IMG/VR virus record: IMGVR_UViG_3300025669_002088
Span: 1 to 64,000 of that record
Origin: an uncultured virus (IMG/VR IMGVR_UViG_3300025669_002088)
Taxonomy: Duplodnaviria > Heunggongvirae > Uroviricota > Caudoviricetes
Strand: one strand, 5' to 3'
Length of the DNA: 64,000 nt
The stretch's first letter is position 1, and the number at the start of each line of letters is the position of its first letter. This document shows, in pieces, positions 12,491-63,150 of the stretch. The notes below the pieces were generated by a model that was not told where the DNA came from, ran no database searches, and saw only the letters and a list, made by a program, of their open reading frames with translations. A program made the translations under genes and the position numbers.

Positions 12491-12663
12491 CTAAAACCTC
12501 TCGATGAAGACGTGTGTGACGGTGATCCGCCGCACCAATCCTCTTTGAGCGTCCCTGACCTTTCCCGTTTCAGAGAAGCGTATCACCTCATCTACTCGAA
12601 GCCTGCCTTTGATGATCAAAACACGCTGCGTGGAGTGGGTTCCGACCTTGGCTATTATCCATT

Positions 12664-13377
12664 TCAAGGGGCTTCACCGATGGCCTCCTGCTGGAGCTTG
12701 TCCAGGTTGAGTACCAGCCCGCAGCGGTTGCATCTCATGTCGCAGAGGTTGCGGGTCACGGTCTCGGGGCTGTCCCACACGGTCCCGATAGGGTGGCACG
12801 AGGATGCTTCCCCGGCGACCACGGTGCCGTCCGGATTGATAGAGGGCGTACAGAACTTCCCCAGACCCCAGAGGTATGCCAGCGCCTGCCCCACGTTCCC
12901 GAAAGATCGGGCACAGCTTCGAAGGTTGAAGCAGTAAGGGGTGAGCCGGTTGCACAGGAGCTTATTGGTCAAAGCCCGCCCGAAGGGGGCAACCTGTCGG
13001 ATCTGGTTTTCGTATTTGACCTTGGGGTGGGGGAACACCTTGATCGTGTCGGGGTAGAATCGGGGATCGTTGGTGACCTGGACACCCCACACCTGGGGAA
13101 GCACCTGCTCCCGTAGTTCCTCATTGGCCAAGAAGAGTCCGTTGGACATCAGAAGCACCTTCAGCCCCATCGTGTTGGCGACACTCAGGAAGGTCAACAG
13201 ATTGGGGTTCTCCGTGGGCTCCCCGCCGCTCAGGAACACCACGGGGGCGTCCAGACTGCGAAGGAAGTTCAGGGCCATTAGGTACGTGTTGAAGGCCATG
13301 TGCGCCCCGTTGTGGCTGGCCTCAATCAGGCAGTGGGTGCAGCCCATCGTGCAGCAGTTGGTGATTCGGATCAGCAA
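12664..13377 (-). CDS. radical SAM protein
   Basis: CxxxCxxC (CTMGCTHC), LSGGEPT, MSNG, Cys-rich C-terminus; AGGAGG RBS. Confidence 0.85.
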   Translation of the reverse strand: MLIRITNCCTMGCTHCLIEASHNGAHMAFNTYLMALNFLRSLDAPVVFLSGGEPTENPNLLTFLSVANTMGLKVLLMSNGLFLANEELREQVLPQVWGVQVTNDPRFYPDTIKVFPHPKVKYENQIRQVAPFGRALTNKLLCNRLTPYCFNLRSCARSFGNVGQALAYLWGLGKFCTPSINPDGTVVAGEASSCHPIGTVWDSPETVTRNLCDMRCNRCGLVLNLDKLQQEAIGEAP

Positions 13378-13415
13378 AGTTACCTCCTAAAGAGGGGTTT
13401 CCGTTGTGTTGCACA

Positions 13416-13646
13416 TCACGCTTCCCTTAACCGTTCACCCGCTTCATACAGGATAATGCCTCGTCGGTCGTCCCACTCTATGTCCAACGCCATCGTTAAC
13501 AGGATGTCAGCTAGTAGCGTGTTTGGGACAGCCCCCAAGAACGGTGGGTCTATCGTTTTGTCCAGCCATCCTCGTATGCGTTTCTCTTGCAAAGGTTCTA
13601 ACGGAAACCGCCCCAAAAGTACCAGCATTTCTTTGACCGTTGCCAT
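13416..13646 (-). CDS. hypothetical protein
   Basis: Coupled small ORF. Confidence 0.5.
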   Translation of the reverse strand: MATVKEMLVLLGRFPLEPLQEKRIRGWLDKTIDPPFLGAVPNTLLADILLTMALDIEWDDRRGIILYEAGERLREA

Positions 13647-13966: not shown

Positions 13967-14328
13967 GTGTTTATAGTCCTGTGATAACGGATCTCACAAG
14001 CAGCCACAGCGTCCGCACCCGTATTGTAGCCTTCGAACTCTCTAACCGTATTGAGCCCGCAAGTCCAGTGCTTCCCTACGTTGCAGATCATCCCCACGTG
14101 CCTGTGTCCTTCCAGCACAATGTATGCTTCCTGAGTGTCCTCCTGCCAAGCTCCCGTTTCCGAAGTACCCTCGAAGGACACGGGACGAAGATGGTAACGA
14201 TCAGGCAACTTGGGACGAGACCCCGAAAGCACAGAGCGTGTCAACGCTTTTACTTTGCGCTGGTAGCGGACAACCTCGAACAGGCCAAGGATCAGGAAGG
14301 CAATGCCAACAACGACATAGGCATTCAT
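13963..14328 (-). CDS. hypothetical membrane-anchored protein
   Basis: N-terminal hydrophobic helix; coupled to the upstream gene. Confidence 0.55.
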   Translation of the reverse strand: MNAYVVVGIAFLILGLFEVVRYQRKVKALTRSVLSGSRPKLPDRYHLRPVSFEGTSETGAWQEDTQEAYIVLEGHRHVGMICNVGKHWTCGLNTVREFEGYNTGADAVAACEIRYHRTINT

Positions 14329-14555
14329 CACTCTACCTCCCAACCGGGCTGGACCCACATGACCTCGTTGCGTTCCTTCACGATGACTTTGCAGATTTCG
14401 TCATCGGCGGACATCTTGATCCCGTCACGGGAACAGCCGACCACTTCCTTCGTGGCGGTGTCCTTGTAAACGGTCGGGACGTCGGACAGGACGAACAGTA
14501 GAGCGACAAAGGCGAACGCCGCCAGGATACCAAGGGTACGAAGGGGATGTTTCAT
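14328..14555 (-). CDS. small membrane protein
   Basis: GGAGG RBS; first gene after the promoter motif at 14578..14605. Confidence 0.6.
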   Translation of the reverse strand: MKHPLRTLGILAAFAFVALLFVLSDVPTVYKDTATKEVVGCSRDGIKMSADDEICKVIVKERNEVMWVQPGWEVE

Positions 14556-14577: not shown

Positions 14578-16320
14578 CTACTCAGGGGTCGGCTCAGATG
14601 ATCCCTCATCATCACCCCACAGATCTTGGAACGTTTGTTGGTCCCAAACCCTGTCGTTATCCTTCTTGCGTAAAATGTAAATTGGATCCGGGAGTGGAAC
14701 ATACTCTTCCCGAGGGCGGTAGAGGGGTAACAAAGGCTTCTTCCCCCTCTCATAGTCGTCCCAGGACAAAACCTGGATCCGGGGACACCTCGGATTAGGA
14801 GAAACCGGAAGAGCGTCGTTGGTTTCCTTCAGATACCGTGCATCTGAATCATTCATGGGATACAGGCTGTAGGTTACGAAATAGGGTGGACGAGAACGCA
14901 CACCACGGATCAAACCGTCCTCTAACTTGGCACGAGCCTTCCCAATCTTATTCTGAAGTGACCCGGTCTGTGCCGTGATGTCCACCCAGGCCAGTAAAGT
15001 CCCGTCCTCCCTGTACAACCTTCCGTCTTTACCCCCATCAGCACCAAGGGAGTCTGATCCCTCCGCCTCCAATAAAGCCACCCACACTTGTTCCAGTTTT
15101 TTATGTCCCTTCAACCCTTTGAGCACCTTGCTGTTGAAGGCTGGATTGGTGCTCAATTTATGCGCTCCGGCGTAGGTGCGAGGTGACCCGGTCAATTCGA
15201 TTTTGTCTAACGCAGGTGACTCAGGAAAAGCCTTCGTCAGACGCTCCAATGCAAACTCCGGGAAGTGGATGTTCACATCGGAGACCCAGAACCGGCGGTT
15301 TGTTCTCATCGCAGCCACCGCCGTTGTTCCTGTTCCTCCAAAGGGATCGATAACCAGATCGCCTTCTTTGGTGGTGGCTTTAATGAGGGCCTCCACCAGA
15401 GCTTCCGGTTTCTGTGTACTATTGGCCCATTTGCCTTTCACTTTTTCTTTGGGTGTGAGGAAAAGGTTATCCCAAAAATGGGATGCATTTTTAAGGATGC
15501 CCCCGTCGCCCACGTAAACCTTCTTCCAGGGACGCCGGTAGATCCCTCCGTCCTTTGCCTTACTGTCCGTGTAGTCCAACAGCCCTTGATCCTCGTACTC
15601 TTGCATCGTTTTCCGGGTGATGCCCCTGATGCATTTGTACCCCGTCCATTCATAGGTATAGGCGGGATGTCCTCCGATCAGGTCCGAGCGTGTGTACTCT
15701 CCAATTGCGTCCGTGTAGGTTTGCCTTCGGCACTTTAGGGGGATCTGATGGCTCTCCCAATAGGGTTTGGCTCCCCCCTTCCAGATCACTGTCAACGTGT
15801 CCACGCAACGTCCCTGCCACTGGGTGTTGGGGCGTTCCTTAGAGGTTCTTCTCCAGTAGATGGGCTCTGCTGGGGTGTTGAAAATATAACGGCAGAGGGT
15901 GTGTATGGTAGTCCCGAACTTGTCATCCGCATGGAAGATCAAAGCGTGACCGGGTCTCAGTGCCCGGTGGGACTTCCAGATGATATAGGCCACATTGATC
16001 AGAAAGGCCCATTCTGAATTGGGCCTTAGTACCTTCTCCATCTCAAGGAAGTCCAGTAGGCCCGTACACTTTTGAAGGGCCTTTTCTGCTCTCACTGTTT
16101 CCTCCGAGGCCATTTTGGACAAGGCGCTAAAAGCCTTGTTCTGAGCTTCGTCCGCTCCCTCTAACCCATAAACAGGGTTAAGGGTGTACGGTGGATCCAG
16201 GTAGATGCACCCCGCTACATTCTCGGGCGTTAACAGAGGGGACAGAACGTCCCCAACATGACCGAAACCGAGCCAATTGCCATCATCGTAAAGCATTTTG
16301 AGCACCTCCTTTTCAGACAC
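14578..16320 (-). CDS. N6-adenine/N4-cytosine DNA methyltransferase (beta class) with an extra C-terminal domain
   Basis: IYLDPPY precedes TQKPEAL..DPFGGTGTT; C-terminal GADGGKDG segment. Confidence 0.88.
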   Translation of the reverse strand: MSEKEVLKMLYDDGNWLGFGHVGDVLSPLLTPENVAGCIYLDPPYTLNPVYGLEGADEAQNKAFSALSKMASEETVRAEKALQKCTGLLDFLEMEKVLRPNSEWAFLINVAYIIWKSHRALRPGHALIFHADDKFGTTIHTLCRYIFNTPAEPIYWRRTSKERPNTQWQGRCVDTLTVIWKGGAKPYWESHQIPLKCRRQTYTDAIGEYTRSDLIGGHPAYTYEWTGYKCIRGITRKTMQEYEDQGLLDYTDSKAKDGGIYRRPWKKVYVGDGGILKNASHFWDNLFLTPKEKVKGKWANSTQKPEALVEALIKATTKEGDLVIDPFGGTGTTAVAAMRTNRRFWVSDVNIHFPEFALERLTKAFPESPALDKIELTGSPRTYAGAHKLSTNPAFNSKVLKGLKGHKKLEQVWVALLEAEGSDSLGADGGKDGRLYREDGTLLAWVDITAQTGSLQNKIGKARAKLEDGLIRGVRSRPPYFVTYSLYPMNDSDARYLKETNDALPVSPNPRCPRIQVLSWDDYERGKKPLLPLYRPREEYVPLPDPIYILRKKDNDRVWDQQTFQDLWGDDEGSSEPTPE

Positions 16321-17267: not shown

Positions 17268-18440
17268 TTACGCCCCTGCCTTGAAGTTGTAGACCGGCTT
17301 CAACCGGGCCTTGATTTCGACCGTGTCCCCGATGCAGTCCTCAACGGTCTGCGAGTCCTTATATGCCATCGGAGCTTCATCCAAGGTTTTCCGGGTCACA
17401 CAGGAGGTCCAAACGTCCTTCATCGTGTCCCTGAATTCCTCCAGGGACAACTCCCGCTTGGCCCTTCCCCGAGCCATCTTCCGTCCGGCCCCGTGGGGTG
17501 CCGAGTTGTTCCAGTCCTCGTTACCTTTGCCTTCGCCCAAAATACACCCATCCCGCATATTCCAGGGTATGATGAGTTCTTCCCCTGCCTTGGCCGAGAT
17601 GGCACCCTTGCGGATGATGTCGTCGTTCCCGATGAAGTTGTGTACCGATGTGACCATTTCCAGGTCTGCCAGTTTCAACCCGAAAAAGCGTACCAGTTCT
17701 GTAGCCATCACCAAACGGTTCAGGGCTGCCAACTGTTGGGCCAGACGCATTTCACGAAGATAGGACCGAGCGTCATCTCCAGTCAGCCAAGCGAGACCAC
17801 CCCAGGAACCCAACTTGGTCTTGGCAACATTTTGATGCTTCTCAGCTACCCGTAGACCGAAATTCCGGGAACCGGAATGGATAATCAGCCAAACATCTGC
17901 ACCGTCCTTTTCCTGATCCAGTTCTAAGAAGTGGTTCCCTGACCCCAAAGAACCAAGAGAATGCCACACCTTACTCCCATCTCCTCGGGCACTCCAGTCC
18001 ACATCATTCACGGTGTCCTGAAAATCAGACCAGGAAGGGCCTCTCCCCAAGTAGTGTTTGAACAAGTATGGGAGGTCTTTGGACACCTCTGTTCGGTTCC
18101 GAAACCCCGAAGGGACATGGGTTCGCAAATGCTTATCGAAAGCTTCGAAATCAGTCTGATCTTTGGTTGTGCCCGTTAACCGAACAGCGTTTACGCCGCA
18201 CCCAATATCGACCCCAACAAGAGAGGGCACAACAGCCAAGTCCTCCTCATCCAGGGGGCAGGTGAATCCGATCACACAACCAAAGCCTGCGTGATGATCG
18301 GGCATGATCCTCACTTTGGCCCCCGCAAAAGCGGGGAGATCCAAGAGTGCGTAGATCTGCTGAGCCTCCAATTGATCTGGGTAGTCCCCGTAAACAACAG
18401 CCGTTGTCCGGCCTCCCTGAATGGTGTGTCCTATACTCAT
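17268..18440 (-). CDS. rtcB: RtcB RNA ligase
   Basis: IMPDHHAG, VGVDIGCG, GSGNHFLE, IHSGSRNFG, HN, RKGA, SAPHGAGR, DEAPMAYK. Confidence 0.95.
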   Translation of the reverse strand: MSIGHTIQGGRTTAVVYGDYPDQLEAQQIYALLDLPAFAGAKVRIMPDHHAGFGCVIGFTCPLDEEDLAVVPSLVGVDIGCGVNAVRLTGTTKDQTDFEAFDKHLRTHVPSGFRNRTEVSKDLPYLFKHYLGRGPSWSDFQDTVNDVDWSARGDGSKVWHSLGSLGSGNHFLELDQEKDGADVWLIIHSGSRNFGLRVAEKHQNVAKTKLGSWGGLAWLTGDDARSYLREMRLAQQLAALNRLVMATELVRFFGLKLADLEMVTSVHNFIGNDDIIRKGAISAKAGEELIIPWNMRDGCILGEGKGNEDWNNSAPHGAGRKMARGRAKRELSLEEFRDTMKDVWTSCVTRKTLDEAPMAYKDSQTVEDCIGDTVEIKARLKPVYNFKAGA

Positions 18441-18461: not shown

Positions 18462-19274
18462 CTACTCAAGTGGGACCACGGATGATCCCACTTGGTGTTT
18501 TAAACGCCAAGCACGGGCAGTGACACTTTTTTCTGTTCTCCCAAGCCGTTGTGCCGCTACATAAGGGAGTTCGGCCCAAACAACGGCATCTTCTTCCGGG
18601 GTCCACCTTTTGTAGGGTGGCCTTTGTCGCATTTCAGGAGGTCTCTGCCAAAGTAGGACAGTGGCTGATGCCTTCTGTTTGCGCTCTAAGGCCAATGCTC
18701 CTGGATAATAAAAGGCTTGCACCAAGGACTGAGCATCCTCCTTCAAGTACATTATATTGAACATGTTGTCTCTTTTGTTAGGCTGTAATTTTCGGGGCTT
18801 ACCCGTGATGGCTTGACAAAAACTCATGAAGGCGGCAGCGATGTGGGGGCTTTTCGTGCCGAAACTGACAAAAGGAAAACCTTTTCCTGTGATGCCTACG
18901 GATCCATCTGCATCAAGCCACCCCCGAAAATAGTCAGAAGCAGAAAAGGGGGTCTCGGGGGTTTTTACAGAGGTAGACTTTTTACCCGCAGGAAGTCCTA
19001 ATCTCTGCAACTCCTTTCTGAAATGCCAATTGGACACCCTGAGGCTACAGGACTCATAACCCTGTTTGAAGTTTGTGTCCCGGCAACGTGTAGACACACT
19101 AGAGTAAAAAGGGATGAGCTTCTGAAAGGCACACAAAAGAGGCTTATCCGAAATCTGAAGTTCGATTGTTAATTTGCCCTTGTTACCTGGACCTTGCCAC
19201 AGGTGGCCGTCTGCCTGTGTAAAACCGAAAAAGTAGGCCCATTGGGGATCCCTGAGATCAATGTTGTAAGTCAT
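18462..19274 (-). CDS. free-standing double-motif LAGLIDADG endonuclease with C-terminal HTH/Myb-like tail
   Basis: YFFGFTQADG and YFRGWLDADG; tail WTPEED..RLGRT. Confidence 0.85.
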   Translation of the reverse strand: MTYNIDLRDPQWAYFFGFTQADGHLWQGPGNKGKLTIELQISDKPLLCAFQKLIPFYSSVSTRCRDTNFKQGYESCSLRVSNWHFRKELQRLGLPAGKKSTSVKTPETPFSASDYFRGWLDADGSVGITGKGFPFVSFGTKSPHIAAAFMSFCQAITGKPRKLQPNKRDNMFNIMYLKEDAQSLVQAFYYPGALALERKQKASATVLLWQRPPEMRQRPPYKRWTPEEDAVVWAELPYVAAQRLGRTEKSVTARAWRLKHQVGSSVVPLE

Positions 19275-20404: not shown

Positions 20405-20947
20405 CTAGCGCTCCTTCGAACCATACGAGATCACAGTACAGGGAGGATCCACCTTGCCATCCAGTCGTGTGAATACGTCAACAGACCAGTGGGGGAGTTT
20501 GGAGGGGACAATCAACATCTTCACCCTTCTCTTACTGTCCAGCCAGAAGTAACGGAGGTTCCAGCGTTCTTGGCCGGAAACGTCCACCCAGCGGGTAGAC
20601 GGTCCAAAGGCCTTGACGTGAGGGAAATCCAGCCCTCTCTGGTAGATGACTCGGTTCAGTACCCGACTTCCGGTGCGGAAATCGAAGTGGCCTTCGGGAG
20701 TTCTCCCCCGGTAGATGGGTCGTTCCTTCTCACAAAAGATAGGGCCACCCTTTAACGAACGACCCCAGGCGTCCTTGTCCTGCTCCTTTGCACTCCTGGA
20801 TGTCAACGTTCGGAGCACCCTGGCGTGTGGCGTGGCCAAGCATTCCTGGGCCTTCCTCCTGAAACCGTCGAGGGACACCAACGTGCCCTCCTTGTAGTCT
20901 TCTAGGAGAACCTCCCATACTCTCTTGTTCTTTTTAGCCTGTCCCAT
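20405..20947 (-). CDS. hypothetical protein
   Basis: GGAGG RBS; follows the promoter motif at 20982. Confidence 0.6.
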   Translation of the reverse strand: MGQAKKNKRVWEVLLEDYKEGTLVSLDGFRRKAQECLATPHARVLRTLTSRSAKEQDKDAWGRSLKGGPIFCEKERPIYRGRTPEGHFDFRTGSRVLNRVIYQRGLDFPHVKAFGPSTRWVDVSGQERWNLRYFWLDSKRRVKMLIVPSKLPHWSVDVFTRLDGKVDPPCTVISYGSKER

Positions 20948-20993
20948 CTTGACCTCCAGGATCATTCGTCCCTTACACCTACTACTCTGCGGG

Positions 20994-21218
20994 TCAGGGA
21001 GATGATCCCTCGACCTTGGGCAGGACAGGCGAATACCGGGTGTTATCCAGGCACTCACGGAGGAGGGCGTCCAGGGTGGCATCGTTATCCTCGGTGAACT
21101 CTACGGCAACAGCGTCCCGCAGGAGTCTGAGGCACTCGGTGATGTTGACCACGTGCGGTCCTTGGCGAACCTCCTCCTTGAAGATCTTGCGGAGCATCCA
21201 TCGTTGGAAACGGGTCAT
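20994..21218 (-). CDS. hypothetical protein
   Basis: Small ORF in the operon. Confidence 0.55.
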   Translation of the reverse strand: MTRFQRWMLRKIFKEEVRQGPHVVNITECLRLLRDAVAVEFTEDNDATLDALLRECLDNTRYSPVLPKVEGSSP

Positions 21219-21841: not shown

Positions 21842-22321
21842 CTATGCCTCGGTCAGGATGTCTATGGTCCGATAGGACCCCTTGTTGTCCCACCCTGCGA
21901 TGGTGCTGATGCTGATGTCGACGTTGCACATGTCGTTGAGGAATTCGAGAGTGCCGTGCGGACCTTCCCCGCTGTAGCCCCATCCGAATCCCGTGTAGAC
22001 CATCAGGACAATCTCCTGTATGTCTGTGTCACGATACGCCGCTTCCGTGCGGTAATCCGAACCATCAGTGTGGAATACCACGGTCTCAGGTATCCCGTAA
22101 CGGGCCTGCATGTAGCGAGCGTTATCCAAGGAGATGTTGGTCACACCGCACTCATCCTTGAGGGACTTGGGAACCTTGCGGTTGGCCCGTCTCCAGGAAC
22201 GGGCAGCAGCCTCGGCTTTCCTTTTGGTCCTCATGGTCACAACACCGTGGGGAGAGCGGAACTTCCACTCGTGGTCCCGTTCCTTCCACACTTCATAGAG
22301 TTCCTTGGTGTGTTTCTTCAC
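21842..22321 (-). CDS. hypothetical protein (DUF6166-like GFGWGYSGEGP motif)
   Basis: Follows the promoter and leader motif; FGWGYSGEGP. Confidence 0.6.
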   Translation of the reverse strand: MKKHTKELYEVWKERDHEWKFRSPHGVVTMRTKRKAEAAARSWRRANRKVPKSLKDECGVTNISLDNARYMQARYGIPETVVFHTDGSDYRTEAAYRDTDIQEIVLMVYTGFGWGYSGEGPHGTLEFLNDMCNVDISISTIAGWDNKGSYRTIDILTEA

Positions 22322-22388
22322 GGTGTCTCCCCTGCGGGGTCATTTGCCCCTCACCCTTACTACTCTGAGGTCGGAGGAGATGATCCCA

Positions 22389-22661
22389 CTACTTTGTTTC
22401 CCAAGGTCCTCGGGGAAGTCGTTCCTTCCACGAATCCTGGACGGCCTCGCTCTCGTACTTCCGGCACCCACAAACGAATGCCTCCTCCCCGCTGGGGGAA
22501 AGCTCGGTGTGGCCGAAACTGTCCTGGAGCCACCCATGATGGATCAAGGACCGCCACGTTGCGATGTAGGTCTTTTGCTTGGCCAGGGAGGTGCTAAGGA
22601 CACGCCTGAGGGCCTGGTACTGACGTTTGGTGGGTTTCAGGTTTTTGCTTGTGATCGTCAT
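22389..22661 (-). CDS. hypothetical protein
   Basis: AAGGAG RBS; follows the promoter motif at 22701. Confidence 0.5.
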   Translation of the reverse strand: MTITSKNLKPTKRQYQALRRVLSTSLAKQKTYIATWRSLIHHGWLQDSFGHTELSPSGEEAFVCGCRKYESEAVQDSWKERLPRGPWETK

Positions 22662-22794
22662 CAAGGTGCTCCTTGCAGGGATCATTTGCCCTCACAAGTA
22701 CTACTCTGGTCCTGACAACGATGATCCCACCTTGATCCCACCTTGTGCCAGGGACACGACGGTAGAGTAGATGATATAAGGCTGGGGGGCATCT

Positions 22795-25097: not shown

Positions 25098-25102
25098 AGT
25101 AG

Positions 25103-25138
25103 GTCGTGTCCTTTAGAAATGGATGCGTGGATTGAAAT
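25103..25138 (+). repeat. solitary degenerate type I-C CRISPR repeat
   Basis: GTCGTGTCCTTTAGAAATGGATGCGTGGATTGAAAT, 36 bp like the array repeat, sharing the 3' 17-mer GGATGCGTGGATTGAAA. Confidence 0.8.
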
Positions 25139-25772: not shown

Positions 25773-26198
25773 TCACCTGTCTTCTAGGGGGATGCACGTT
25801 GCACGGGATGCCCCCCGAAGGCGACCATCGGCACCTTTCCACAGGAGCACCCAGGAGGAATGCTCCTTCTCAAGCCAAGGGAGACGTCCATTAACGGCCC
25901 CTCTGGTTCGCACGATGGTCGAGCTTTCGCTGTCCCCTTGTGCTACGAGACCTTCCACATCCCAGATGTAGATGTGTGTGCCTCGTGGGACTCGGAAGAA
26001 ACGGGTTTCCATAAAGATGTCGAAATACCCCGCTACCACCATGTCTTTGCGAGATGGGATCTTATCCGGTTCATACCCCATGTCCTCCATGCATTCAGCC
26101 CATTCCTCGTCTGTGTAGGAAGCAGGGGCTACTGTGATTTCGTTAATGCAGCGGCCATCCACTATTTTGTTTGGGCAGCGAGCACTACAGGGTATCAT
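25773..26198 (-). CDS. hypothetical protein
   Basis: AGGAG RBS; follows the promoter motif at 26251. Confidence 0.55.
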   Translation of the reverse strand: MIPCSARCPNKIVDGRCINEITVAPASYTDEEWAECMEDMGYEPDKIPSRKDMVVAGYFDIFMETRFFRVPRGTHIYIWDVEGLVAQGDSESSTIVRTRGAVNGRLPWLEKEHSSWVLLWKGADGRLRGASRATCIPLEDR

Positions 26199-26865
26199 TT
26201 TGTCTCCTGGCCCTTCGGGTATCCATTAGCGTCCTCATGTACACCATTAACTACTCGGACGGTCCCCCAGATGATCCCACTAGTCGCCTTGGTGCGACTT
26301 CCCCGTCGTCTGAACTCCTGGTAGCGGGTGACCCCCAGGTGTTCCTTGAGGTACCTCGCCGTGTCTTTCCTTGGGATTGTGAAACTGAGGGTTAACGACA
26401 AGTCTCCGTCGTCCTCAAAGAAGGGGTACTTGACAGTACCCCTCAAACTTACTAAAGTCTAATTGTTCCTGCTTGAAACAGGAGGCTGTTATGGCAGGAA
26501 GGCTTATGCTGATTGGGTAGGAGGTTCTGGTGTGCCCAGATGTTCTGGGGGTGAACACATTGGTACTAACGATCACCCACGAGGCGTAAAACGAGTGCTG
26601 AGAGAGCGATTCCGTCTTCGACGGACCAGTTCCTTGGGATTCGGACGGAAGGAGCAACCGTCATCCGAGCCCTTACCGTTGGGCCGGAAGTTTACTACCG
26701 AGGTACTTGGGTCACCAAGATTCGGCACAGCTTCAAACTTGATGCCTGTTACATTCTAGCAGGTTTTAAGGAACGGTAGGGTTTGTCCGTGAGGATTTCC
26801 ACCCGATCTACCCCGTCAGCGAAGTGCAACACCTGGATCCGGTCGATAGAAATGGTCTGACTCAT
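26195..26865 (-). pseudogene. hypothetical gene interrupted by a 350-bp mini-TnpB element
   Basis: Removing 26427..26776 restores the frame MSQTISIDR...TDKP-Y-PFFEDDG. The start overlaps the upstream stop (TAATG). Confidence 0.75.
26427..26776 (+). mobile_element. non-autonomous mini IS607-like element (promoter + putative omegaRNA), copy 1
   Basis: Shares the ~50-bp left end and ~285-bp right end of element 34222..35732; TTGACA-N17-TAAAGT; ends AAGGAACGG. Confidence 0.88.
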
Positions 26866-27881: not shown

Positions 27882-27884
27882 GGG

Positions 27885-28404: not shown

Positions 28405-28415
28405 CTCGTCCTCCT

Positions 28416-29784: not shown

Positions 29785-30261
29785 CTACTCCGTGGCCGAG
29801 TCAGATGATCCCGTTTCGACTTTGACCATATAGCCATCCCGGATCTCCCACTGTGGATCCACGCAGAGACCCGCCACATGATCCTCTAAACAAAAATGAC
29901 ACAGGGGGGTTCGTCCGCAAAGATCACAGGACTCAAGAACACAACTGGGAGCCAGCAATTGGGAGCATTGGCAACACCGCTGCGGGGCACCTCTGTCAAT
30001 GACGTCAGCAAGCTCTCGGATCGAACAACCGCCCCAATGGCGACGTACCCACTTCCCCCAACCTGTCCGTTTGCTGGCTTTCTTATACAACTGACAGACA
30101 TAAAAGCTGATCACCTGAGGCTGTTCTAGAGTGTCCCTGTACAAGGTAGCGAGAACATCGAACGCTTCCTCGCTGTCTGCTGCCCAGACGTAGCCAAGTA
30201 CCCGAGGGTGTGCCTCTGCTGTTTGGTAAAAACCAGTCCAGAAGTTTGGTTTTTCAGGCAT
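29785..30261 (-). CDS. hypothetical Zn-binding protein
   Basis: Several CxxC pairs; follows the promoter motif at 30304. Confidence 0.55.
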   Translation of the reverse strand: MPEKPNFWTGFYQTAEAHPRVLGYVWAADSEEAFDVLATLYRDTLEQPQVISFYVCQLYKKASKRTGWGKWVRRHWGGCSIRELADVIDRGAPQRCCQCSQLLAPSCVLESCDLCGRTPLCHFCLEDHVAGLCVDPQWEIRDGYMVKVETGSSDSATE

Positions 30262-30385
30262 GCTCGTGCTCCCACCCTGCAAAACGGTAACTCTCCACTC
30301 TGTCTACTCTGAAGCGTCCCCAGATGATCCCGGTGAAAGGCCTATAAAGGACGGAAGCTGTAAACCAGTCCGGGGAGGCTTAACA

Positions 30386-33138: not shown

Positions 33139-33204
33139 TCCTCCTGGTGGGCGTCAGTGCCCCTCACCTTAACTACTCTGCAGGTTGCCCAGATGATCCC
33201 TGGA

Positions 33205-33500: not shown

Positions 33501-33701
33501 CTACTCTGTGGGTCGGGGAGATGATCCCTGAAAGTCAGAAGGCACAACCCCTCTTTCAAGGAGGTGCCGTTCAAGAGTGGCATAGTCCACATGAGGAAGG
33601 GGACGGCGGAACGCATCACGAATACGCCTTCCCTCAGGTGTCCTGATAGGGATGTTTTGAAGGTTTGGCCCCTTTTTCCGGTCCCCTGTTTTTCCCATCA
33701 C
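33501..33701 (-). CDS. small protein resembling a DNA polymerase I motif-A fragment
   Basis: PNLQNIPIRTPEGRRIRDAF..DYATLE resembles PolA PNLQNIP.R...G..IR.AF..DYSQIE. Confidence 0.55.
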   Translation of the reverse strand: MMGKTGDRKKGPNLQNIPIRTPEGRRIRDAFRRPLPHVDYATLERHLLERGVVPSDFQGSSPRPTE

Positions 33702-36055: not shown

Positions 36056-36124
36056 TGTCTACTCAGAGAGGTTCCGAGATGATCCCTTTTGCTCGGTACG
36101 GTAGAGAAACACAGGAGGAAGACC

Positions 36125-36442: not shown

Positions 36443-36525
36443 CTCGACACATCTGACGAGATCCCAGTCCCCCAATTGATCATCGCCGGTCTTCCCCGAG
36501 TAGCTGTGTGTATAGGGGGGGACAG

Positions 36526-45316: not shown

Positions 45317-45346
45317 TGCGACATCTAAGTCACAAAGGATGAACAA

Positions 45347-48150: not shown

Positions 48151-48231
48151 TGCTACCTTGTCTACTCCAACGGTCCTGGAGATGATCCTTTCTTTTGGCT
48201 CCGTGTCCTCATTGCGTCCTCAAAGCGTTCA

Positions 48232-49764: not shown

Positions 49765-49893
49765 TACGCCCTCCTCACTTCAGCTACTCTGGACGCCCGC
49801 CAGATGATCCCTGTAACATTGCGGGATCATCTCGCCGGGTGGCGGAGTAGTCAGTGTGAACGGGGGCAAATGACCCCACTACAGGAGGGCACG

Positions 49894-50271
49894 ATGGATA
49901 AACCGCAAGTGAATCAGATCGTGGAGAAAGCGAAGGAAGCGATGAGCGAACTGGCGGCAGCCCTTGGGATACAGATCATCTATCGGGGCGGACGGTACGG
50001 TGAGGACACGCTTACCGTGAAGTTCGAGTTCCAGGAGATGACGGCCCACGCTGATGGTGCCTCCGATGCCGTTCCCGCTGCCTTCGCCCGCACGGCTCAG
50101 ATGTTGGGTGTCCCCACCGACAGTTTCGGCAAAACCTTCAAACAGGGGCAACGCACCTACACGGTGGTGGGCCTGAGCACCCGACGCCCCAAGTTCCCCG
50201 TGTCCGCCACCCGTGACGATGGCAAACAGTTCAAGTTCCCGATGCATGTGTTGAACCGGGTGGCAGTATGA
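49894..50271 (+). CDS. hypothetical phage protein
   Basis: AGGAGG RBS after the promoter motif at 49823; RRPKFPV motif. Confidence 0.7.
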   Translation: MDKPQVNQIVEKAKEAMSELAAALGIQIIYRGGRYGEDTLTVKFEFQEMTAHADGASDAVPAAFARTAQMLGVPTDSFGKTFKQGQRTYTVVGLSTRRPKFPVSATRDDGKQFKFPMHVLNRVAV

Positions 50272-52408: not shown

Positions 52409-52698
52409 GCACTGTCCTCTTCGTCGTCGTTGTCCGTCTCCGTTTCCCACAGATTTCCCACAGGGAAGCTGAAAGTATCATGGTCATAGTCCGAGCACAT
52501 GGCGAGGCGCATCAGGCAGTGGACGTGAACCTCGCCATCCTCGAAGGTGATGTGATCGACCTCGGGACGGTAAACCGCTCCCTTCCTGAATTCCCGGTCG
52601 TTGTCCCACCGTGCCCAGAAACGCTTTTCGGCCAGGACCTGAAGCGATGCCGATGCCTCCAGCATCGCTTCGACCTGGGCCTTCGTGTACCCGCTCAC
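52405..52698 (-). CDS. hypothetical protein, paralog of 52695..53192
   Basis: YT..Q..AM.E....L..LA...FW and YD..TF.FP...LW shared. Confidence 0.6.
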   Translation of the reverse strand: MSGYTKAQVEAMLEASASLQVLAEKRFWARWDNDREFRKGAVYRPEVDHITFEDGEVHVHCLMRLAMCSDYDHDTFSFPVGNLWETETDNDDEEDSA

Positions 52699-53192
52699 GG
52701 GGTGCTCCCGTCGAGCACGTCGGGGTGCTTCTTGGCAAGCTCCTGAAGCTGTTTGCGTTCGGCCTTCTCCCGTTCCTTCCGGCGACGTTCCTCCGCCGCT
52801 TCCAGTTCCTTTTTGCGACGCTCCTCGGCCTCCTTCTGCCGCCGAGCCATGTCCACCAAGACTTCCATCTGGTCCTGCCAGAGGTAGGACAGGGGGAACT
52901 CGAAGGTGTGGTTGTCGTAACCGCAGCAGCCACACCCGCAAGCCCTGGCCTCGCAGTAAATGAAGACCGTGTCCGCATAGAAGTTGATGTTGTTGATGGA
53001 GGGAGTATGGAGGAACTCTCTCCCTTCGTAGTCCTCCTCATCCTTCGCCGCATCATCCTCATCCCATTCGAGGCAGCGGAACCTGGGGTCGGCGTGATAC
53101 CGATCCCAGAAATAGTCCTGGGCCAGTTTGTTGAGCTTGTCCTGCCCTTCGACCATTGCCCGGATCTGTTCCTCGGTGTACTCAGCGTTCAT
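52695..53192 (-). CDS. hypothetical protein with a coiled-coil tail
   Basis: First gene after the promoter motif at 53244. Confidence 0.65.
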   Translation of the reverse strand: MNAEYTEEQIRAMVEGQDKLNKLAQDYFWDRYHADPRFRCLEWDEDDAAKDEEDYEGREFLHTPSINNINFYADTVFIYCEARACGCGCCGYDNHTFEFPLSYLWQDQMEVLVDMARRQKEAEERRKKELEAAEERRRKEREKAERKQLQELAKKHPDVLDGSTP

Positions 53193-53355
53193 GATGCCAC
53201 CGCCTTTAGGTTCCCCAGGGGATCCCCGTTGTCAACACACCATCTACTCTGTCCGGCCCAGCGATGATCCACCAATCGATCATCGCTGACTTTGGGAGAG
53301 ACGGTGAAAGGACAATACGGAGTAGAAGGAACGTGATTAGCGGCGGCTGGTAGGT

Positions 53356-54336: not shown

Positions 54337-54500
54337 GCCACACCCCAGTGCCTCCAGCAGTCTAAGCGTCGAGCGGCGTTTGAACCTCTACTGGAGGGGC
54401 ACTATTGAAGGGAAAACGGGGCCGGGTGTCCTTTTGGGATCATCTCCTCCGACCCCAGAGTAGTAGAGGTGAGGGGCAAATGACCCTGAAGGAGAACGAG

Positions 54501-56654: not shown

Positions 56655-56739
56655 GCAAACGATAGGTACCGGGATCATCTGACCGACCTACAGAGTAGTC
56701 TAGGTGAGGGCAAAGGACCCCCGCAAGGAGACACGCAAA

Positions 56740-57312
56740 ATGAGGCTGCATTACTACCGGGGGAACATCGTCCACGCACAGGTGGACGCCATCGTGAACG
56801 CTGCCAACCCCAGGATGCTTGGCGGTGGGGGGGTCGACGGGGCCATTCACCGAGCGGCGGGTCCGGGGCTGAGGGCTGCGTGCAGGGAGTTCCCCGAGTT
56901 GGAACAGGGTGTCCGCATTCGGGTCGGACAGGTTCGGACGACCGAGGGCTTCGACCTGGACGCCGATTTCGTCATCCACACGGCGGGGCCGATCTTCGCT
57001 GGGTACGGCATACGAAGCCTCCGACCGGGCGAGCGGGTCGAACCCCGGCCCCTCAATGAACTCATGCACTGCATCGTCAACTGCCTGAAGGAAGCGGCCC
57101 GGATCGGAGCCAACAGGGTCGCCTTCCCCGCCATCTCAGCAGGGGTCTACGGGGGCAGCGTGTCGGCCTTTGCCCACGCCCTCCACGAGGCCATGAAACA
57201 GGAAGCCCGCCTCCCCATCGAGGAGGTCCAGGTCGTCCTGTTCCAGGACAACGAGTTCCAGGAGTTTAGCGACTGGCAGGAAACAGCGGACGACGCTCCG
57301 CCCATCCCCTGA
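56740..57312 (+). CDS. macrodomain ADP-ribose hydrolase (MacroD/YmdB-like)
   Basis: VDAIVNAAN..LGGGGVDGAIHRAAG, VIHT.GP, AFPAISAGVYG. Confidence 0.93.
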   Translation: MRLHYYRGNIVHAQVDAIVNAANPRMLGGGGVDGAIHRAAGPGLRAACREFPELEQGVRIRVGQVRTTEGFDLDADFVIHTAGPIFAGYGIRSLRPGERVEPRPLNELMHCIVNCLKEAARIGANRVAFPAISAGVYGGSVSAFAHALHEAMKQEARLPIEEVQVVLFQDNEFQEFSDWQETADDAPPIP

Positions 57313-58146: not shown

Positions 58147-58227
58147 CTCCTGTCTGTACTACTCCATCGGGAAACGAAGGGATCATCTGAGAGGCCCACT
58201 GAGTAGACTTGGTAGGAGGGTCTGACT

Positions 58228-58560
58228 ATGGCGGAAAAGGACGACACCAAAGAACTGAAGATGTGGTACGCTTTTGGGTTTCGGTCTCCCACGCAGTCAC
58301 ACCACCTCTATGAGGGGCGTATCGAGGCCGAGACCATAGAGGACGCCTTCGACTTCGTGTTCCGCCACGCTGACAACAGGAACAGGTTCAAACGCTATGT
58401 CGGTTTTTGGGTGCAGGAAAACATGATGAGCCGCACAGGGGATCTGCGTGTCGGATGGATCACCCCCTCAAGATACATGTCCCCCTCCTACCAGTGGAGA
58501 TTACGAAAACCCGAAGACGTCCCGTTGAGGACGGAGGTGACAGCAAATGAAAACCCCTGA
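58228..58560 (+). CDS. hypothetical protein, first gene of the helicase operon
   Basis: Promoter motif at 58179 plus AGGAGG RBS. Confidence 0.65.
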   Translation: MAEKDDTKELKMWYAFGFRSPTQSHHLYEGRIEAETIEDAFDFVFRHADNRNRFKRYVGFWVQENMMSRTGDLRVGWITPSRYMSPSYQWRLRKPEDVPLRTEVTANENP

Positions 58561-60526
58561 AACTCGTACCTTGCGCCCCTATCAGCAGGACTGTTTCCGG
58601 CACTTGTTCCGGCACGTCACCAACGGGAGACGAGAGGTAGTGCTGAGTGGTCCCACCGGAAGCGGCAAATCCCTCATGGTGACCTATCTGGCCGAACGGT
58701 TGCTCAACACGGAGATGTTTCGGTTAGCCGTTGTTCTCGCCCCACAGTGTCAGATTTCGGATGCCTTCATCTATGAGGGAGACCTGAAGATCCGCCCCAG
58801 CGAGGAAGTACCCCAGGGAAGAGTGTCTGTTGGGGGGCCACTCACGGTAGCGGCCCTTCAGTGGTTCCAAGTTCGGGATGGTAAGCGCCGGGAGTACCTC
58901 AAAGATCACGTCAGAAGTGTCCGCCCGGTTAACCGGGTGCTGGTCACGACACATATGGCGGCGGCAGTCTGGTTTGCCCCTGACCTTCTCCCCAAGGACA
59001 TGACCGGGCGTCTCCTGATCGTGGACGAGGCACACCACACAGCCCCCGAGAACGGTGTGGGTACCTTCGTCAAGGAGTGGCAGACCCGAGGGGGCACAGT
59101 CATTCACGTGACTGCCACGCCCTTCCGCACGGACGGTGATACCCTTATTGATGACAACGCCCCCCGCTGGGACCGCACGCTGGCATCCCACATGGAGGGA
59201 GGCCAGTACGCACCGGGGCAGCTTTCTTTCCGCACACATCCTCTGGGCATAAAGGCGAACACGACGAATCAGCTTGCTGGCGAGTCCATGACCAGTACTG
59301 CCCCACTCCAAACCTGTATCGACATCGTGGACTTGTGGGTCAAGGACAAGCGCCCCAAGGCTGTCATCATCGTCCCCGCTAACAGTGCCGATGCGTGGTC
59401 TAAACGGCTGGAGGACGAGTTCACCAGGCAGGGAGCGAGGGTACACAACGCCATCAAGGGGGGGCAACGAGCCACCGACGCCCTCAAGCACCTCCTCCGA
59501 AAGGAACGTCGGGTCCGAGCCTACGAGGACTCCACCGTAGACGTGATCCTTGCCTGTGCCCGGTTCAATGAGGGAACCGACTGGCCCCTGTGCAGCCATG
59601 TCTACAACATCGGCCTGACCAGTTCCTTCGTCCGCATCCTTCAACGCCTGGGGCGGGCGTTGCGCTTCAAGGGAGCCATCGATGGCTACCCCGAGGAGCA
59701 CAAGAACACGGCCACCTTCACCTTCCTGGTACCCTGTGTGACCGAGAACTTGTTTGCCCAGTTCGAACAGCAGCACCAGGATCATGCCTTCCTGACGGCG
59801 TGCTTCATGGCGGATTTTAGTGTCGGCCAGGACTACATCCTGGGGGACATCCAGCGACGTTTGGAGGACATCGGGCACAAGCGTCAGGGCAAAAAGCATC
59901 GCCCGGCGGAGGAAACCTGGGAGGATGTCACCCAGTTCATCGGGGCTGATGTTCAACAGTGCCGGGAGGCCATGGGTCTCATGGTCAAGGCCGTTATCCT
60001 TCTCCGTGAGAGTGGGGTCAAGAAACCGACCAACAAAGAGGTGGCCCACTACCTGAGGACAGCGATGCGGTTGTCCAAGGAGCAGATGGAACAGGCTGAA
60101 CGAGCACTGGCGTACAGCATCCTCAAAAAACAAACCCGAGCCTTCTCCTACTTTCACAAGACCCTGTGGAGGAAGGCCCAGGGCGGGGATTTGTCTGACT
60201 ACCGCATCATCCGAGAGGAGTTGAGGCCGGTCTTCGACGCAGTGATCCAAGAGTTCGAAGGGGCGACGGCGGACATTGGTCAGGCGGACAGGGTCGTTGA
60301 CTTCCTGTCCCGTTTCGAGGGCAGGACAGCGAAGCAGGTCGCTGAACGTCTGAAAGCTGCGATACCTCCGCCACAGTTCACCTTGGCTCAGATAGATGAC
60401 GCCTTGATGTCCTACTTTGAGGAGCACAAAGTTGAACCCCCTATTGATAACACCGACGCTTCCCCTCACTTCAAGCTCCCCCCGATCACAATCAACTGGA
60501 AGCAGGTCTACGGGCAGATGCCATGA
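58547..60526 (+). CDS. superfamily 2 (DEAH, ResIII-like) helicase
   Basis: LRPYQ, GPTGSGKS, DEAHH, TATPFRTD, EGTDWP, Q.LGRALR. Confidence 0.9.
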   Translation: MKTPETRTLRPYQQDCFRHLFRHVTNGRREVVLSGPTGSGKSLMVTYLAERLLNTEMFRLAVVLAPQCQISDAFIYEGDLKIRPSEEVPQGRVSVGGPLTVAALQWFQVRDGKRREYLKDHVRSVRPVNRVLVTTHMAAAVWFAPDLLPKDMTGRLLIVDEAHHTAPENGVGTFVKEWQTRGGTVIHVTATPFRTDGDTLIDDNAPRWDRTLASHMEGGQYAPGQLSFRTHPLGIKANTTNQLAGESMTSTAPLQTCIDIVDLWVKDKRPKAVIIVPANSADAWSKRLEDEFTRQGARVHNAIKGGQRATDALKHLLRKERRVRAYEDSTVDVILACARFNEGTDWPLCSHVYNIGLTSSFVRILQRLGRALRFKGAIDGYPEEHKNTATFTFLVPCVTENLFAQFEQQHQDHAFLTACFMADFSVGQDYILGDIQRRLEDIGHKRQGKKHRPAEETWEDVTQFIGADVQQCREAMGLMVKAVILLRESGVKKPTNKEVAHYLRTAMRLSKEQMEQAERALAYSILKKQTRAFSYFHKTLWRKAQGGDLSDYRIIREELRPVFDAVIQEFEGATADIGQADRVVDFLSRFEGRTAKQVAERLKAAIPPPQFTLAQIDDALMSYFEEHKVEPPIDNTDASPHFKLPPITINWKQVYGQMP

Positions 60527-61230
60527 ACAAGTTCCGCAAAAGACTGGCCGAAATGGGGCTGGTGGAACCCGTATCCGAATGGTTCCTGGACTACGTGGCC
60601 CGTATGACACGGTACATGGAGGAAAATGACGGGAGGACACCCCCTCAGACGTATGCCTGCGAAGATGGGTACAAGCTAGGGTCGAAAACCAACTCCATCC
60701 GAACTAGCTACCGCCGAGGAACTGGTCATAAGCTTACGTCCGAGATGATTCGGATGCTCGATGACATTGGCTTCCCGTGGAACGGGAACGGGTGGTTCAA
60801 AGGTGTCCTTCGCCGTCTGATTGAGTACAAGGCGGAACACGGTCACTGCGCCCCCCCTGGCACGCATGTCCACCATGACGGATACAAGCTGGGGAAACGA
60901 GTACAAGTGATCCGTTCCGGAAGGAGGGGCATAGGTAGTCTCAAGGTCACCTCCGAGATGGTCGAGCAGCTTGACGCTATAGGGTTTGTCTGGGACGCCT
61001 GCAACACTGGCAAATGGTGGCCAGAGTTCTACGCCCACATCAAAGCGGTGCTGGAAAAGTACCCCGTGGGCCACATCCCGAAGGACTACGTGTGCCCCGA
61101 TGGGTACAAGTTGGGAGAAAAGGCGAGCCATGTTCGATGCGGGAGACGAGGCAAAGGTTTCCTCCAAGTGATCCCCGAGATGATCGCCAAACTTGATGCC
61201 CTCGGTTTCCTCTGGGTGGTTCCGAGATGA
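60523..61230 (+). CDS. helicase-associated (HA) repeat protein, 3 repeats
   Basis: W...L..YK.EHGHC..P...DGYKLG......R...LD.IGF.W units. Confidence 0.85.
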   Translation: MNKFRKRLAEMGLVEPVSEWFLDYVARMTRYMEENDGRTPPQTYACEDGYKLGSKTNSIRTSYRRGTGHKLTSEMIRMLDDIGFPWNGNGWFKGVLRRLIEYKAEHGHCAPPGTHVHHDGYKLGKRVQVIRSGRRGIGSLKVTSEMVEQLDAIGFVWDACNTGKWWPEFYAHIKAVLEKYPVGHIPKDYVCPDGYKLGEKASHVRCGRRGKGFLQVIPEMIAKLDALGFLWVVPR

Positions 61231-62153
61231 ACAAGTTCCGGCAACGCCTCAGTGTGTTGGGTTATGTGCCTTCCTGGCCAGCTTGGTTTGACCTCTTCCT
61301 GGAGAAACTGAAGGAATACAAAAAGGAGCGTGGGCACTGTCAGGTGCCTAAATCCTACAAGTGTCCCGAGGACGGGTACCATCTGGGGGAACGGGTAATG
61401 GTTGTTCGGTCAGCTAAGAGAGGCAAAGGGAACGTCACACTGACCGACGAGATGACCAAGGAACTCGACGCCATCGGTTTCGTATGGGATCCGAGGGAGT
61501 GGTTCCCTGAGTTCCTGGAGAAACTGAAGGAATACAAAAAGGAGCGTGGGCACTGTCAGGTGCCTAAATCCTACAAGTGTCCCGAGGACGGGTACAAGCT
61601 CGGGGGCAGAGTAGATAATGTCCGACAAGCTAAGAGAGACAAAGGGAGACTCAAAATAGCCCCCGAAATGATCAAGGAACTCGACGCCATTGGGATCGTG
61701 TGGGATCCGAGGGAGTGGTTCCCTGAGTTCCTGGTGAGGCTGAGGGAATACAAAAGGGAGCATGGCCACTGTCAGGTGCCGACGTCCTACAAGTGGCCCG
61801 AGGACGGATACCATCTGGGGGAACGGGTAAGGGGTGTTCGGTCAGCTAAGAGAGGCAAAGGGACGGTCATCCTGACCGACGAGATGACCAAGGAACTCGA
61901 TGCCATCGGGTTCGTGTGGGATCCGAAGGAGTGGTTCCCTGAGTTCCTGGTGAGGCTGAAGGAATACAAAAAGGAGCACGGGGACTATCAGGTGCCCACA
62001 TCCTACAAGTGTCCCGAGGACGGGTACAAGCTCGGGACACGGGTAAAGGGTGTCCGACAAGCTAAGAGAGGCATAGGCAGGATCAAAGTGACTCCCGAGA
62101 TGATCAAGGAACTCGACGCCATCGGTTTCGTGTGGGAGGTCATCCGTGCGTAG
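61227..62153 (+). CDS. HA repeat protein, 4 repeats (216-bp tandem units)
   Basis: GGTTCCCTGAGTTCCTGG recurs at 61501, 61717, 61933. Confidence 0.88.
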   Translation: MNKFRQRLSVLGYVPSWPAWFDLFLEKLKEYKKERGHCQVPKSYKCPEDGYHLGERVMVVRSAKRGKGNVTLTDEMTKELDAIGFVWDPREWFPEFLEKLKEYKKERGHCQVPKSYKCPEDGYKLGGRVDNVRQAKRDKGRLKIAPEMIKELDAIGIVWDPREWFPEFLVRLREYKREHGHCQVPTSYKWPEDGYHLGERVRGVRSAKRGKGTVILTDEMTKELDAIGFVWDPKEWFPEFLVRLKEYKKEHGDYQVPTSYKCPEDGYKLGTRVKGVRQAKRGIGRIKVTPEMIKELDAIGFVWEVIRA

Positions 62154-63150
62154 GAGGAGCAACAAATTCAGACTGCGGCTCGTTGAGCTTGGGCGGATGA
62201 AACCTTGGCCAGCGTGGTTCGATGAGTTCCACTCCCACCTTCAGACGTACAAGGCGGAGCACGGGGATTGTGAAGTGCCCCACAACTACAAGTGTGAAGA
62301 CGGGTACCGCTTAGGGAACAAGGTGGGGCGAATCCGTTCCGCAAGGAAGCGCCCATCAAACCGTGTGTTGACGGAGGAGATGAGTACTGCCCTCGATGCC
62401 ATCGGTTTTGACTGGCTGGCTCCAAAAGATCGCTGGTTCCAAAAGTTCCGGGTTCGTCTGGTGGAATATATGACCGCTCACGACGGCCAAAACCCACCCG
62501 TTCCTTATGAGTGCCCCGATGGATACACCCTGGGTAAAACTGCCGCCGCTGTTCGGGCAGCGAAACGGGCAAGGGCACTGAATAAGAAGGCGTTCCGGCA
62601 ACTCACGGATGAGATAATTGCTGACCTGGACGCACTTGGATTTGAATGGGAACCCTCGGAATGGTTCCCCGACTTTGTGCAGCGTTTGCGTGAATACAAG
62701 GCGGAACATGGGAACTGTTCGATCCCTGTCAAATTTGAATGTGCGGATGGACACAAGTTAGGCCTGAGGGTCCAACGCATCCGAACGAGCATCCGCCGGT
62801 TGGAGGAGGGCAGCGATGAGTCGATGCCCCTCCAGGTCACCCCAGAGATGGTCTTAAAACTGGATGCCCTCGGGTTCGAGCGGGACCGGAACCTGACGGG
62901 CAAATGGTTCCCCAAGTACCTCAGTCACCTGACGAAGTTCTACCGGGAGCACGGCGACAGCATGGTGCCCAGGGGATATTGCTGTCGGGATGGGTACAAG
63001 TTAGGGGCCATGACGAACAGCGTTAGAGAGGGCCGTAGGGACGCAACAGGTCGGAGGAAAATCACCCTGCCCATGGTTGCTGATCTAGCTGCCCTCGACT
63101 TTATGTGGGATGTTCGAATAACGGGATCATCTCGGCCACCTACAGAGTAG
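62146..63150 (+). CDS. HA repeat protein, 4 repeats
   Basis: Same repeat consensus. Confidence 0.85.
   Translation: MRRRSNKFRLRLVELGRMKPWPAWFDEFHSHLQTYKAEHGDCEVPHNYKCEDGYRLGNKVGRIRSARKRPSNRVLTEEMSTALDAIGFDWLAPKDRWFQKFRVRLVEYMTAHDGQNPPVPYECPDGYTLGKTAAAVRAAKRARALNKKAFRQLTDEIIADLDALGFEWEPSEWFPDFVQRLREYKAEHGNCSIPVKFECADGHKLGLRVQRIRTSIRRLEEGSDESMPLQVTPEMVLKLDALGFERDRNLTGKWFPKYLSHLTKFYREHGDSMVPRGYCCRDGYKLGAMTNSVREGRRDATGRRKITLPMVADLAALDFMWDVRITGSSRPPTE

Follow-up and report, generated by a model that had tools for sequence, protein, structure and literature searches.

A repeated bipartite motif in a huge uncultured phage: a probable promoter class for a phage-encoded sigma factor

The first 64,000 nucleotides (the window) of an uncultured Caudoviricetes virus, IMG/VR record IMGVR_UViG_3300025669_002088, carry a repeated bipartite element, GGGATCATCT-N12-GAGTAG. 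An earlier note on this DNA had proposed it as the recognition site of a phage sigma factor or RNA polymerase, or of an alternative host sigma factor. Analysis of the sequence indicates that the element is almost certainly a promoter of some kind. It probably belongs to a promoter class read by a phage-encoded sigma factor on the host core polymerase, as are the promoters of phage phiEco32 gp36 (probability about 0.75).

In the window, 15 exact matches to the motif were found against 0.00 expected, and 25 against 0.61 expected when up to three mismatches were allowed. A weight matrix gave exactly 21 sites in the window, in agreement with the roughly 21 copies counted before, and 27 in the whole 125,741-bp record; shuffled sequences gave none at equal threshold. 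The 12-bp spacer, previously described as invariant, was the sole enriched spacing, with 25 sites (up to two mismatches) against 0-4 at each alternative spacer length between 8 and 17. Within the motif, GATCAT-N14-GAGTAG forms an invariant core, together with a C two bases 5′ of GAGTAG. The 125,741-bp record contains 27 copies of this core and none of its reversed control. With 53 distinct exact sites taken from viral contigs, the pattern could be extended to GGGATCATCT-S-N9-C-N-GAGTAG-W-N4-GT, the spacer letters varying between sites.

The housekeeping sigma70 consensus is TTGACA-N17-TATAAT, that of sigma28 (FliA) is TAAA-N15-GCCGAT and that of sigma54 is GG-N10-GC. The position table of the motif departs from the sigma70 consensus, as had been noted, and GAGTAG does not supply a TAnnnT -10 element; by inspection of the same table, neither the sigma28 nor the sigma54 consensus was matched. 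The motif has no dyad symmetry, its reverse complement being different, and neither such symmetry nor a gene-independent orientation, the marks sought for an operator or recombination site, was found. When compared with the promoter of the Streptomyces sigma factor ShbA, the motif showed a -35/-10 pair, tightly spaced at close to 16 nt, with a -10 of CGT/GTA type. The layout is that of an extracytoplasmic function (ECF)-type sigma promoter.

The sites were next compared with the genes around them, across all 91 sites located in the genome (see below). Of the 91, 74 are followed on their own strand, within 80 nt, by a ribosome-binding site (RBS), a start codon and an open frame, against 23 of 91 on the opposite strand and 17% of random positions. 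Under a strict form of this test 18 of the 21 window sites passed, the misses being the tRNA site and those at 53244 and 12592. Thus the sites do point into a downstream RBS and gene, and the random orientation that would have suggested recombination or packaging sites was not seen genome-wide, orientation being strict toward RBSs and tRNAs. A GT at +6/+7 after GAGTAG was found at 83 of the 91 sites (background 12%) and at all 21 in the window. Start-codon offsets bunch near 20 nt and near 40 nt, the latter group mostly with a leader hairpin, and one site lies 16 nt ahead of a tRNA-Lys. Orientation, spacing, the GT, the tRNA position and the lack of dyad symmetry together fit a -35/-10 promoter, and transcription likely starts at or beside the G of this GT. 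The promoter reading of the earlier note was therefore upheld by orientation, fixed spacing, a conserved putative start, tRNA position and, as described below, gene fronts common to relatives. The window sites are:

12592..12619, minus strand: weak motif variant; gene 12116-12490 starts 101 nt downstream; fails the strict RBS and open-frame test.
14578..14605, minus strand: exact motif; small gene 14328-14555, 22 nt downstream; TAG is the stop codon of the upstream methylase gene.
18462..18489, minus strand: motif; rtcB 17268-18440, 21 nt; TAG is the stop of the upstream frame.
20982..21009, minus strand: exact motif with leader hairpin; gene 20405-20947.
22360..22387, minus strand: exact motif with leader hairpin; gene 21842-22321.
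22701..22728, minus strand: motif with leader hairpin; gene 22389-22661.
26251..26278, minus strand: exact motif; gene 25773-26198.
29785..29812, minus strand: exact motif with leader hairpin; gene 29419-29742; TAG is the upstream stop codon.
30304..30331, minus strand: exact motif; gene 29785-30261.
33173..33200, minus strand: exact motif; WGR-PARP gene 31591-33132, 40 nt.
33501..33528, minus strand: exact motif with leader hairpin; gene 33205-33459; TAG is the upstream stop codon.
36059..36086, minus strand: exact motif; tRNA-Ile 35921-35992, 66 nt; fails the strict test.
36476..36503, plus strand: weak variant; cas3 of a type I-C cas3-cas5-cas8c-cas7 block, 22 nt.
48162..48189, minus strand: motif; gene 47228-48100; single CRISPR-repeat-like sequence in the leader.
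49784..49811, minus strand: exact motif, left half of a divergent pair; gene 49309-49764, 19 nt.
49823..49850, plus strand: exact motif with leader hairpin, right half of the divergent pair; gene 49894-50271.
53244..53271, minus strand: motif variant; gene 52695-53192, 51 nt; fails the strict test.
54436..54463, plus strand: exact motif with leader hairpin; gene ending at 55265.
56671..56698, plus strand: exact motif with leader hairpin; macrodomain gene 56740-57312, 41 nt.
58179..58206, plus strand: exact motif; gene 58228-58560 and helicase operon, 21 nt.
63123..63150, plus strand: exact motif; helicase-associated-domain gene 63170-63970; TAG is the upstream stop codon.

The back-to-back divergent pair was confirmed, and rtcB, the PARP, the macrodomain, cas3 (behind a weak variant), the helicase operon and the tRNA all lie downstream of the motif, as the earlier note had named them. 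Both weak variants, at 12592 and 36476, start with TTGATC. In three relatives, homologues of the gene that ends at 55265 follow the motif proper to each of those phages. At 14578, 18462, 29785, 33501 and 63150 the TAG of GAGTAG doubles as the stop codon of the upstream frame. The leader hairpin was seen at 22 of the 91 sites, 8 of the 21 in the window; it is typically GGGG-C-AAAT-G-A-CCCC with a bulged A, right after the putative start (window 33480-33495 and 21 other leaders). In the window it had no Rfam match, and it may be a 5′ element with a protein-binding or stabilising role.

The window makes up the first half of a viral record of 125,741 bp (G000), which is rated 24% complete. A second record, G007, extends G000 through a 6,525-bp overlap of 100% identity. 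Among metagenome contigs the motif was found at 90 loci, 32 of which lie on a single contig of 528,282 bp; every one of these 32 matches G000 (12), G002 (18) or G004 (2) at 100%. For Cas7, RtcB and ThyX of the window, and for the sigma of G002, the longest contig listed also has this length. These matches and the exact overlap indicate that G000, G002, G004 and G007 are parts of one huge phage, of which they cover about 462 kb of 528 kb. They hold 91 sites: 53 in G002, 27 in G000, 8 in G004 and 3 in G007, after removal of 2 shared with G000. A further 20 kb or so of the remainder (L400, L401) held none, and none was present in G007 from 6.5 to 104 kb. The description of the motif as genome-wide thus stands for 91 sites over about 462 kb and fails for this block of about 97 kb, which consists of long, mostly structural-type genes. 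An exact 127-bp inverted repeat occupies window positions 1-127 and 45315-45441, and the first 45 kb of the window run the opposite way in the 528-kb contig; this is either an assembly artefact or a genuine inversion.

Genes whose products could read the motif were then sought. RNA polymerase beta (PF00562) gave no match in five records (G000, G002, G004, G007 and the complete relative LR745208.1), with 14 of 14 controls found, in a search that did not reach some 68 kb of the genome or cover polymerases of the single-subunit type. This disfavours a phage RNA polymerase. No sigma or polymerase gene was found in the window's own 125,741-bp record. Elsewhere in the same genome, four ECF-like sigma genes were identified; the names sigX, sigY and sigZ were coined in this analysis.

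sigX, G002 123460-124359: 299 amino acids; sigma2 at 110-198, sigma4 at 223-299.
sigY, G004 28283-29371: 362 amino acids.
Short sigY paralogue, G002 171478-172128: TIGR02937 match at E 3e-5.
sigZ, G004 26945-28039: ECF-like.

The search for a phage sigma factor that had been suggested earlier thus succeeded outside the window, and of the three readers proposed then, the phage sigma gained support while the phage polymerase and the host sigma were both disfavoured. The predicted model of sigX (pLDDT 85) aligns to sigma2/sigma4 of SigD, SigH, RpoE and SigK with Z of 7-8. Nearly all top rows of the structure search are sigma factors, the N-terminal domain being unmatched. sigX has 488 homologues, and both sigY and sigX give weak TIGR02937 matches. 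Among 42 related records, mostly fragments, sigY is present in 32 and sigZ in 20; as a sigma factor sigZ is only a lead. A motif site on the same strand lies 2.5 kb upstream of the short sigY paralogue. This paralogue was considered as the sole candidate and set aside in favour of the conserved families, since it has just one close homologue. By inspection, a clear sigma70-type promoter precedes sigY here and in many relatives; before sigX it is clear in LR745208.1 and G029, with only a weak candidate in this phage. Separate sigma70-type promoters occur in this genome, many before TnpB elements. A gene for a double-sigma4 protein (L400:10001-10501, L110:1183-2384) is also present; it recurs in 9 of 9 near-complete relatives and adjoins a NusG-like gene in LR745208.1.

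The same arrangement was followed in relatives. The motif is common to three other phage fragments of about 45-50% protein identity (24, 20 and 18 sites), and the core was found in none of 49 other sigX-bearing records. De novo motif search in 28 regions gave a motif above shuffle scores in 21. Seventeen phage motifs align as a 4-mer-N16-4-mer with (A/C/G)GTA or CGAT/CGCT/CGTG/CGTT at -10 and with differing letters, in an alignment anchored by hand-chosen seeds that leaves out G041 (sigma70-like), G025, G040, G046 and the seven regions without a motif. Examples are:

This phage: GGG-ATCA...G-AGTA-G
G022: CTTA...G-CGTA-G
G023: GTAA...AGTA-G
G036: GGG-CTTA...G-AGTA-G
G027: TCAA...C-CGTA
LR745208.1: CT-AAAA...C-CGAT-AG

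LR745208.1 is the closest deposited relative, its polymerase and helicase being 48% identical. It has homologues of sigX, sigY, sigZ and the double-sigma4 protein, and a repeated bipartite promoter with equal downstream GT..GAGG context. It differs in the motif itself, CGATTTC.CTAAAA...CCGATAG; the window motif has no match there with up to two mismatches and spacer 12. The motifs of G042, G073 and G045 bridge to this sigma28-like version. Of 23 genes that follow the relative's own motif in eight relatives, 9 have a homologue behind the motif in this phage; among other genes the figure is 13 of 192 (p 8e-5). With the differing letters, this indicates that the promoter position was inherited and its letters rewritten.

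Mean identity is 63% in region 2 of sigX, which is conserved, and 24% in the variable region 4, a contrast that parallels -10 and -35. Rank correlations for sigX (n=14) were 0.44 for region 2 with -10 (p 0.007) and 0.42 for region 4 with -35 (p 0.001), the cross terms being 0.19 and 0.11. For sigY they were 0.18 (p 0.10) and 0.34, with cross terms of 0.34 and 0.36. When a marker gene was controlled for (9 phages), sigX retained 0.57 (p 0.02) and 0.44 (p 0.012), and sigY gave -0.09 and 0.49. A sigX branch with altered region 2.4 (support 96/94) holds the phages whose -10 departs from xGTA. These results weakly suggest that sigX co-varies with the motif domain by domain.

The promoter might instead be tuned to a host alternative sigma (ECF or group 3), different phage lineages having adapted to different host sigmas. 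In layout it is like SigB/F and SigH promoters, the genes behind the motif look early and accessory and would need a reader at infection, and LR745208.1 has 52 sigma28-like sites without a Pfam sigma region-2 match. A scan of prokaryote genomes for such a regulon, the earlier note having proposed a scan of the host, did not bear this out. A 17-base pattern gave 21 single matches in 185,579 prokaryote genomes, where about 70 are expected arithmetically at uniform composition. Twenty of the 21 lay inside open frames of at least 116 codons; one, at a contig end of a cyanobacterial bin, was promoter-like. A looser pattern gave 1-2 copies in each of those 21 genomes. On other metagenome contigs 59 sites were found, of which 17 belong to this phage, 23 are near a phage-clade protein and 19 are neither; of these 19, most fall within long frames and two are promoter-like, one of the two on an otherwise-phage contig. 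A multi-copy regulon with the motif was thus found in none of the prokaryote genomes or metagenome contigs scanned, which disfavours a host sigma as the reader. The phage, moreover, carries sigma genes of its own, and the motifs of its relatives grade into one another at a single spacing instead of falling into a few known classes. A host sigma is accordingly considered improbable. CRISPR spacers matched only the phage's own array among the loci compared, so no host could be named.

Less probable still is a phage activator bound to the upstream half that redirects host sigma70 in the manner of T4 MotA/AsiA, or an operator overlapping a promoter. The TTGATC of the weak variants is near a sigma70 -35, and the presence of the conserved double-sigma4 protein, with a NusG-like gene as neighbour, also speaks for this reading. 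GAGTAG, however, provides no TAnnnT -10, true sigma70-type promoters are separate in the genome, dyad symmetry is absent, and both halves change jointly between lineages. A recombination, packaging or replication signal unrelated to transcription is hardly credible: sites do flank small-gene cassettes, whose exchange common sites might aid, but their strict orientation to RBSs and tRNAs, variable spacer letters, conserved GT and absence from the long-gene block speak against it.

Several observations weigh against a phage-encoded sigma as the reader, or against sigX in particular. Seven of the 28 relative regions yielded no motif, and the LR745208.1 motif (52 sites) is near the sigma28 consensus and could be read by a host sigma. 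Host promoters may be too degenerate for exact scans, or the host may be absent from the genome collection. For a helical protein, the Z of 7-8 obtained with the sigX fold is middling, and at E 0.001 the short sigY paralogue had no Foldseek match. No motif site lies directly 5′ of sigX, sigY or sigZ, unlike typical ECF autoregulation, and the clearest conserved sigma70-type promoter belongs to sigY, not sigX. The marker gene itself correlated at 0.30 with -10 and 0.56 with -35, so that a plain marker tracks -35 too. The co-variation comes from 9-14 related phages, hand-picked seeds and several tests, and kin share both traits. In G027 and G037, sigX region 2 is 92% and region 4 59% identical, yet the -35 elements are quite different.

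Among the phage-encoded sigmas, sigX is the leading candidate, at slightly under even odds overall; sigY or its short paralogue is an unlikely reader, and sigZ or another sigma a still less likely one. The first place of sigX is tentative, with the co-variation in its favour and the G027/G037 pair, the sigY promoter, the sigY predictions, kinship and the small sample against it. Prior predictions from the scheme in which sigY reads the motif and sigX a second class, as checked in G081, G072, G073 and G076, gave a mixed outcome: G081 agreed, with 3 sites and a score that did not exceed shuffles, G072 agreed in part, G073 agreed at -35 only, and G076 had no motif. A count of the -10-plus-GT pattern was too noisy to discriminate.

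If a phage sigma is the reader, host sigma70 holoenzyme would first make it, as the sigma70-type sites before sigY and before sigX of some relatives suggest. By its fold and by established sigma biology, the phage sigma would then bind host core. Its sigma4 domain would read GGGATCAT as the -35, and sigma2 would open the DNA at (C)nGAGTAG, the -10. About 90 units would be transcribed, including rtcB, PARP, macrodomain, cas3-cas7, helicase, tRNA and other accessory or nucleic-acid-metabolism genes, presumably switched on after the sigma gene product is made. More tentatively, and with the odds leaning against it, the members of a widespread clade of 400-600-kb phages could each drive their accessory genes through a private promoter whose -35 and -10 are rewritten per lineage in step with the two DNA-reading domains of sigX. 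If true, many mutually orthogonal sigma-promoter pairs would exist, possibly with a cascade from host sigma70 to sigY to sigX, and the rewriting could be driven by competition among related phages.

Other features of the genome were recorded. Window 36526-43935 holds the type I-C cas3-cas5-cas8c-cas7 block, after which comes an array with about 14 clear and some degenerate repeats; cas1/cas2 had no match among window genes. Solitary CRISPR-repeat-like sequences lie outside the array at 48119-48156 (minus strand) and about 25100-25138 (plus strand). The former separates a motif site from a 290-aa gene and so belongs to the leader; Cas5 might cleave there, or the sequence might give a decoy RNA. 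Another motif, CGGT-N8-(T/A)ATA, occurs at window 30331, 43936 and 53302 and also in G002, G004 and G007. It is intergenic at 9 of 9 sites here, precedes sigZ in several relatives and was not enriched in relatives' regions; it is a candidate second promoter class. Besides the window tRNA-Ile, a tmRNA and 37 tRNA genes form two clusters (G002 294-50637, G004 41070-43683). TnpB-type and IscB-type (RRXRR-HNH) mobile genes lie at window 6724-7994 and 34294-35802 and in L001-L004; the TnpB elements bear sigma70-type promoters, and element remnants are dispersed across the genome. At window 58547-63970 and L001:1716-2791, a helicase is followed by six genes with repeated helicase-associated (HA) domains, two genes of the run standing behind their own motif site; a helicase search in viral contigs gave no match. 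In the 619-kb relative G041, positions 442001-522000 (L273-L276) carry sigma70-like promoters in which the -10 is followed by the start codon at 6-7 nt and the spacers share a TATCAC. Its motif had been considered sigma32-like, as if each phage copied a known host sigma. The site list revealed a sigma70-like leaderless promoter; this reading was dropped, and the co-variation excluded G041.

Phage sigmas that redirect host polymerase are already known, and the basic mechanism is not new. New here is a readable transcription code of an uncultured huge-phage clade: a single genome holds about 90 promoters close to consensus, several sigma families are uncharacterised, and relatives show at least 14 promoter versions of one geometry. 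No description of the motif or of the sigma family was found in the literature searched, from which subscription papers and bioRxiv supplements were absent. Should sigX prove to be the reader, the clade would be a natural series for the rewiring of sigma specificity and a source of orthogonal sigma-promoter pairs.

Among known systems, SPO1 gp28 and T4 gp55 are phage sigmas that take over host core in a timed cascade. The present candidates differ from them in sigma family and promoter sequence. Jumbo phages without an RNA polymerase use sigma factors of their own (PMC7824862), and sigma genes occur in huge phages (PMC7162821). The promoter of Streptomyces ShbA, an ECF (group 4) sigma, is CGTAAC-N16-CGATGA (PMC12019637). 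The motif resembles it in its short bipartite layout, spacing of about 16 nt and CGT/GTA-type -10 core; it differs from bacterial ECF systems in that no autoregulation was found and in a regulon that is far larger and more uniform. Nor was an anti-sigma factor identified, though no search was aimed at one. The closest parallel would be phiEco32. According to PMC12276001, gp36 is a distant sigma homologue with sigma2-like and sigma4-like domains that works on host core; early genes use host sigma70, middle and late promoters have an AATGTA -10 consensus, and the 77-kb genome encodes one sigma. A phage sigma on host core, with host sigma70 for the early step, would be shared with that system. 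Compared with phiEco32, this phage has about 90 sites in 528 kb, at least four sigma-like genes, an extra N-terminal domain in sigX and clade-wide rewriting of the motif.

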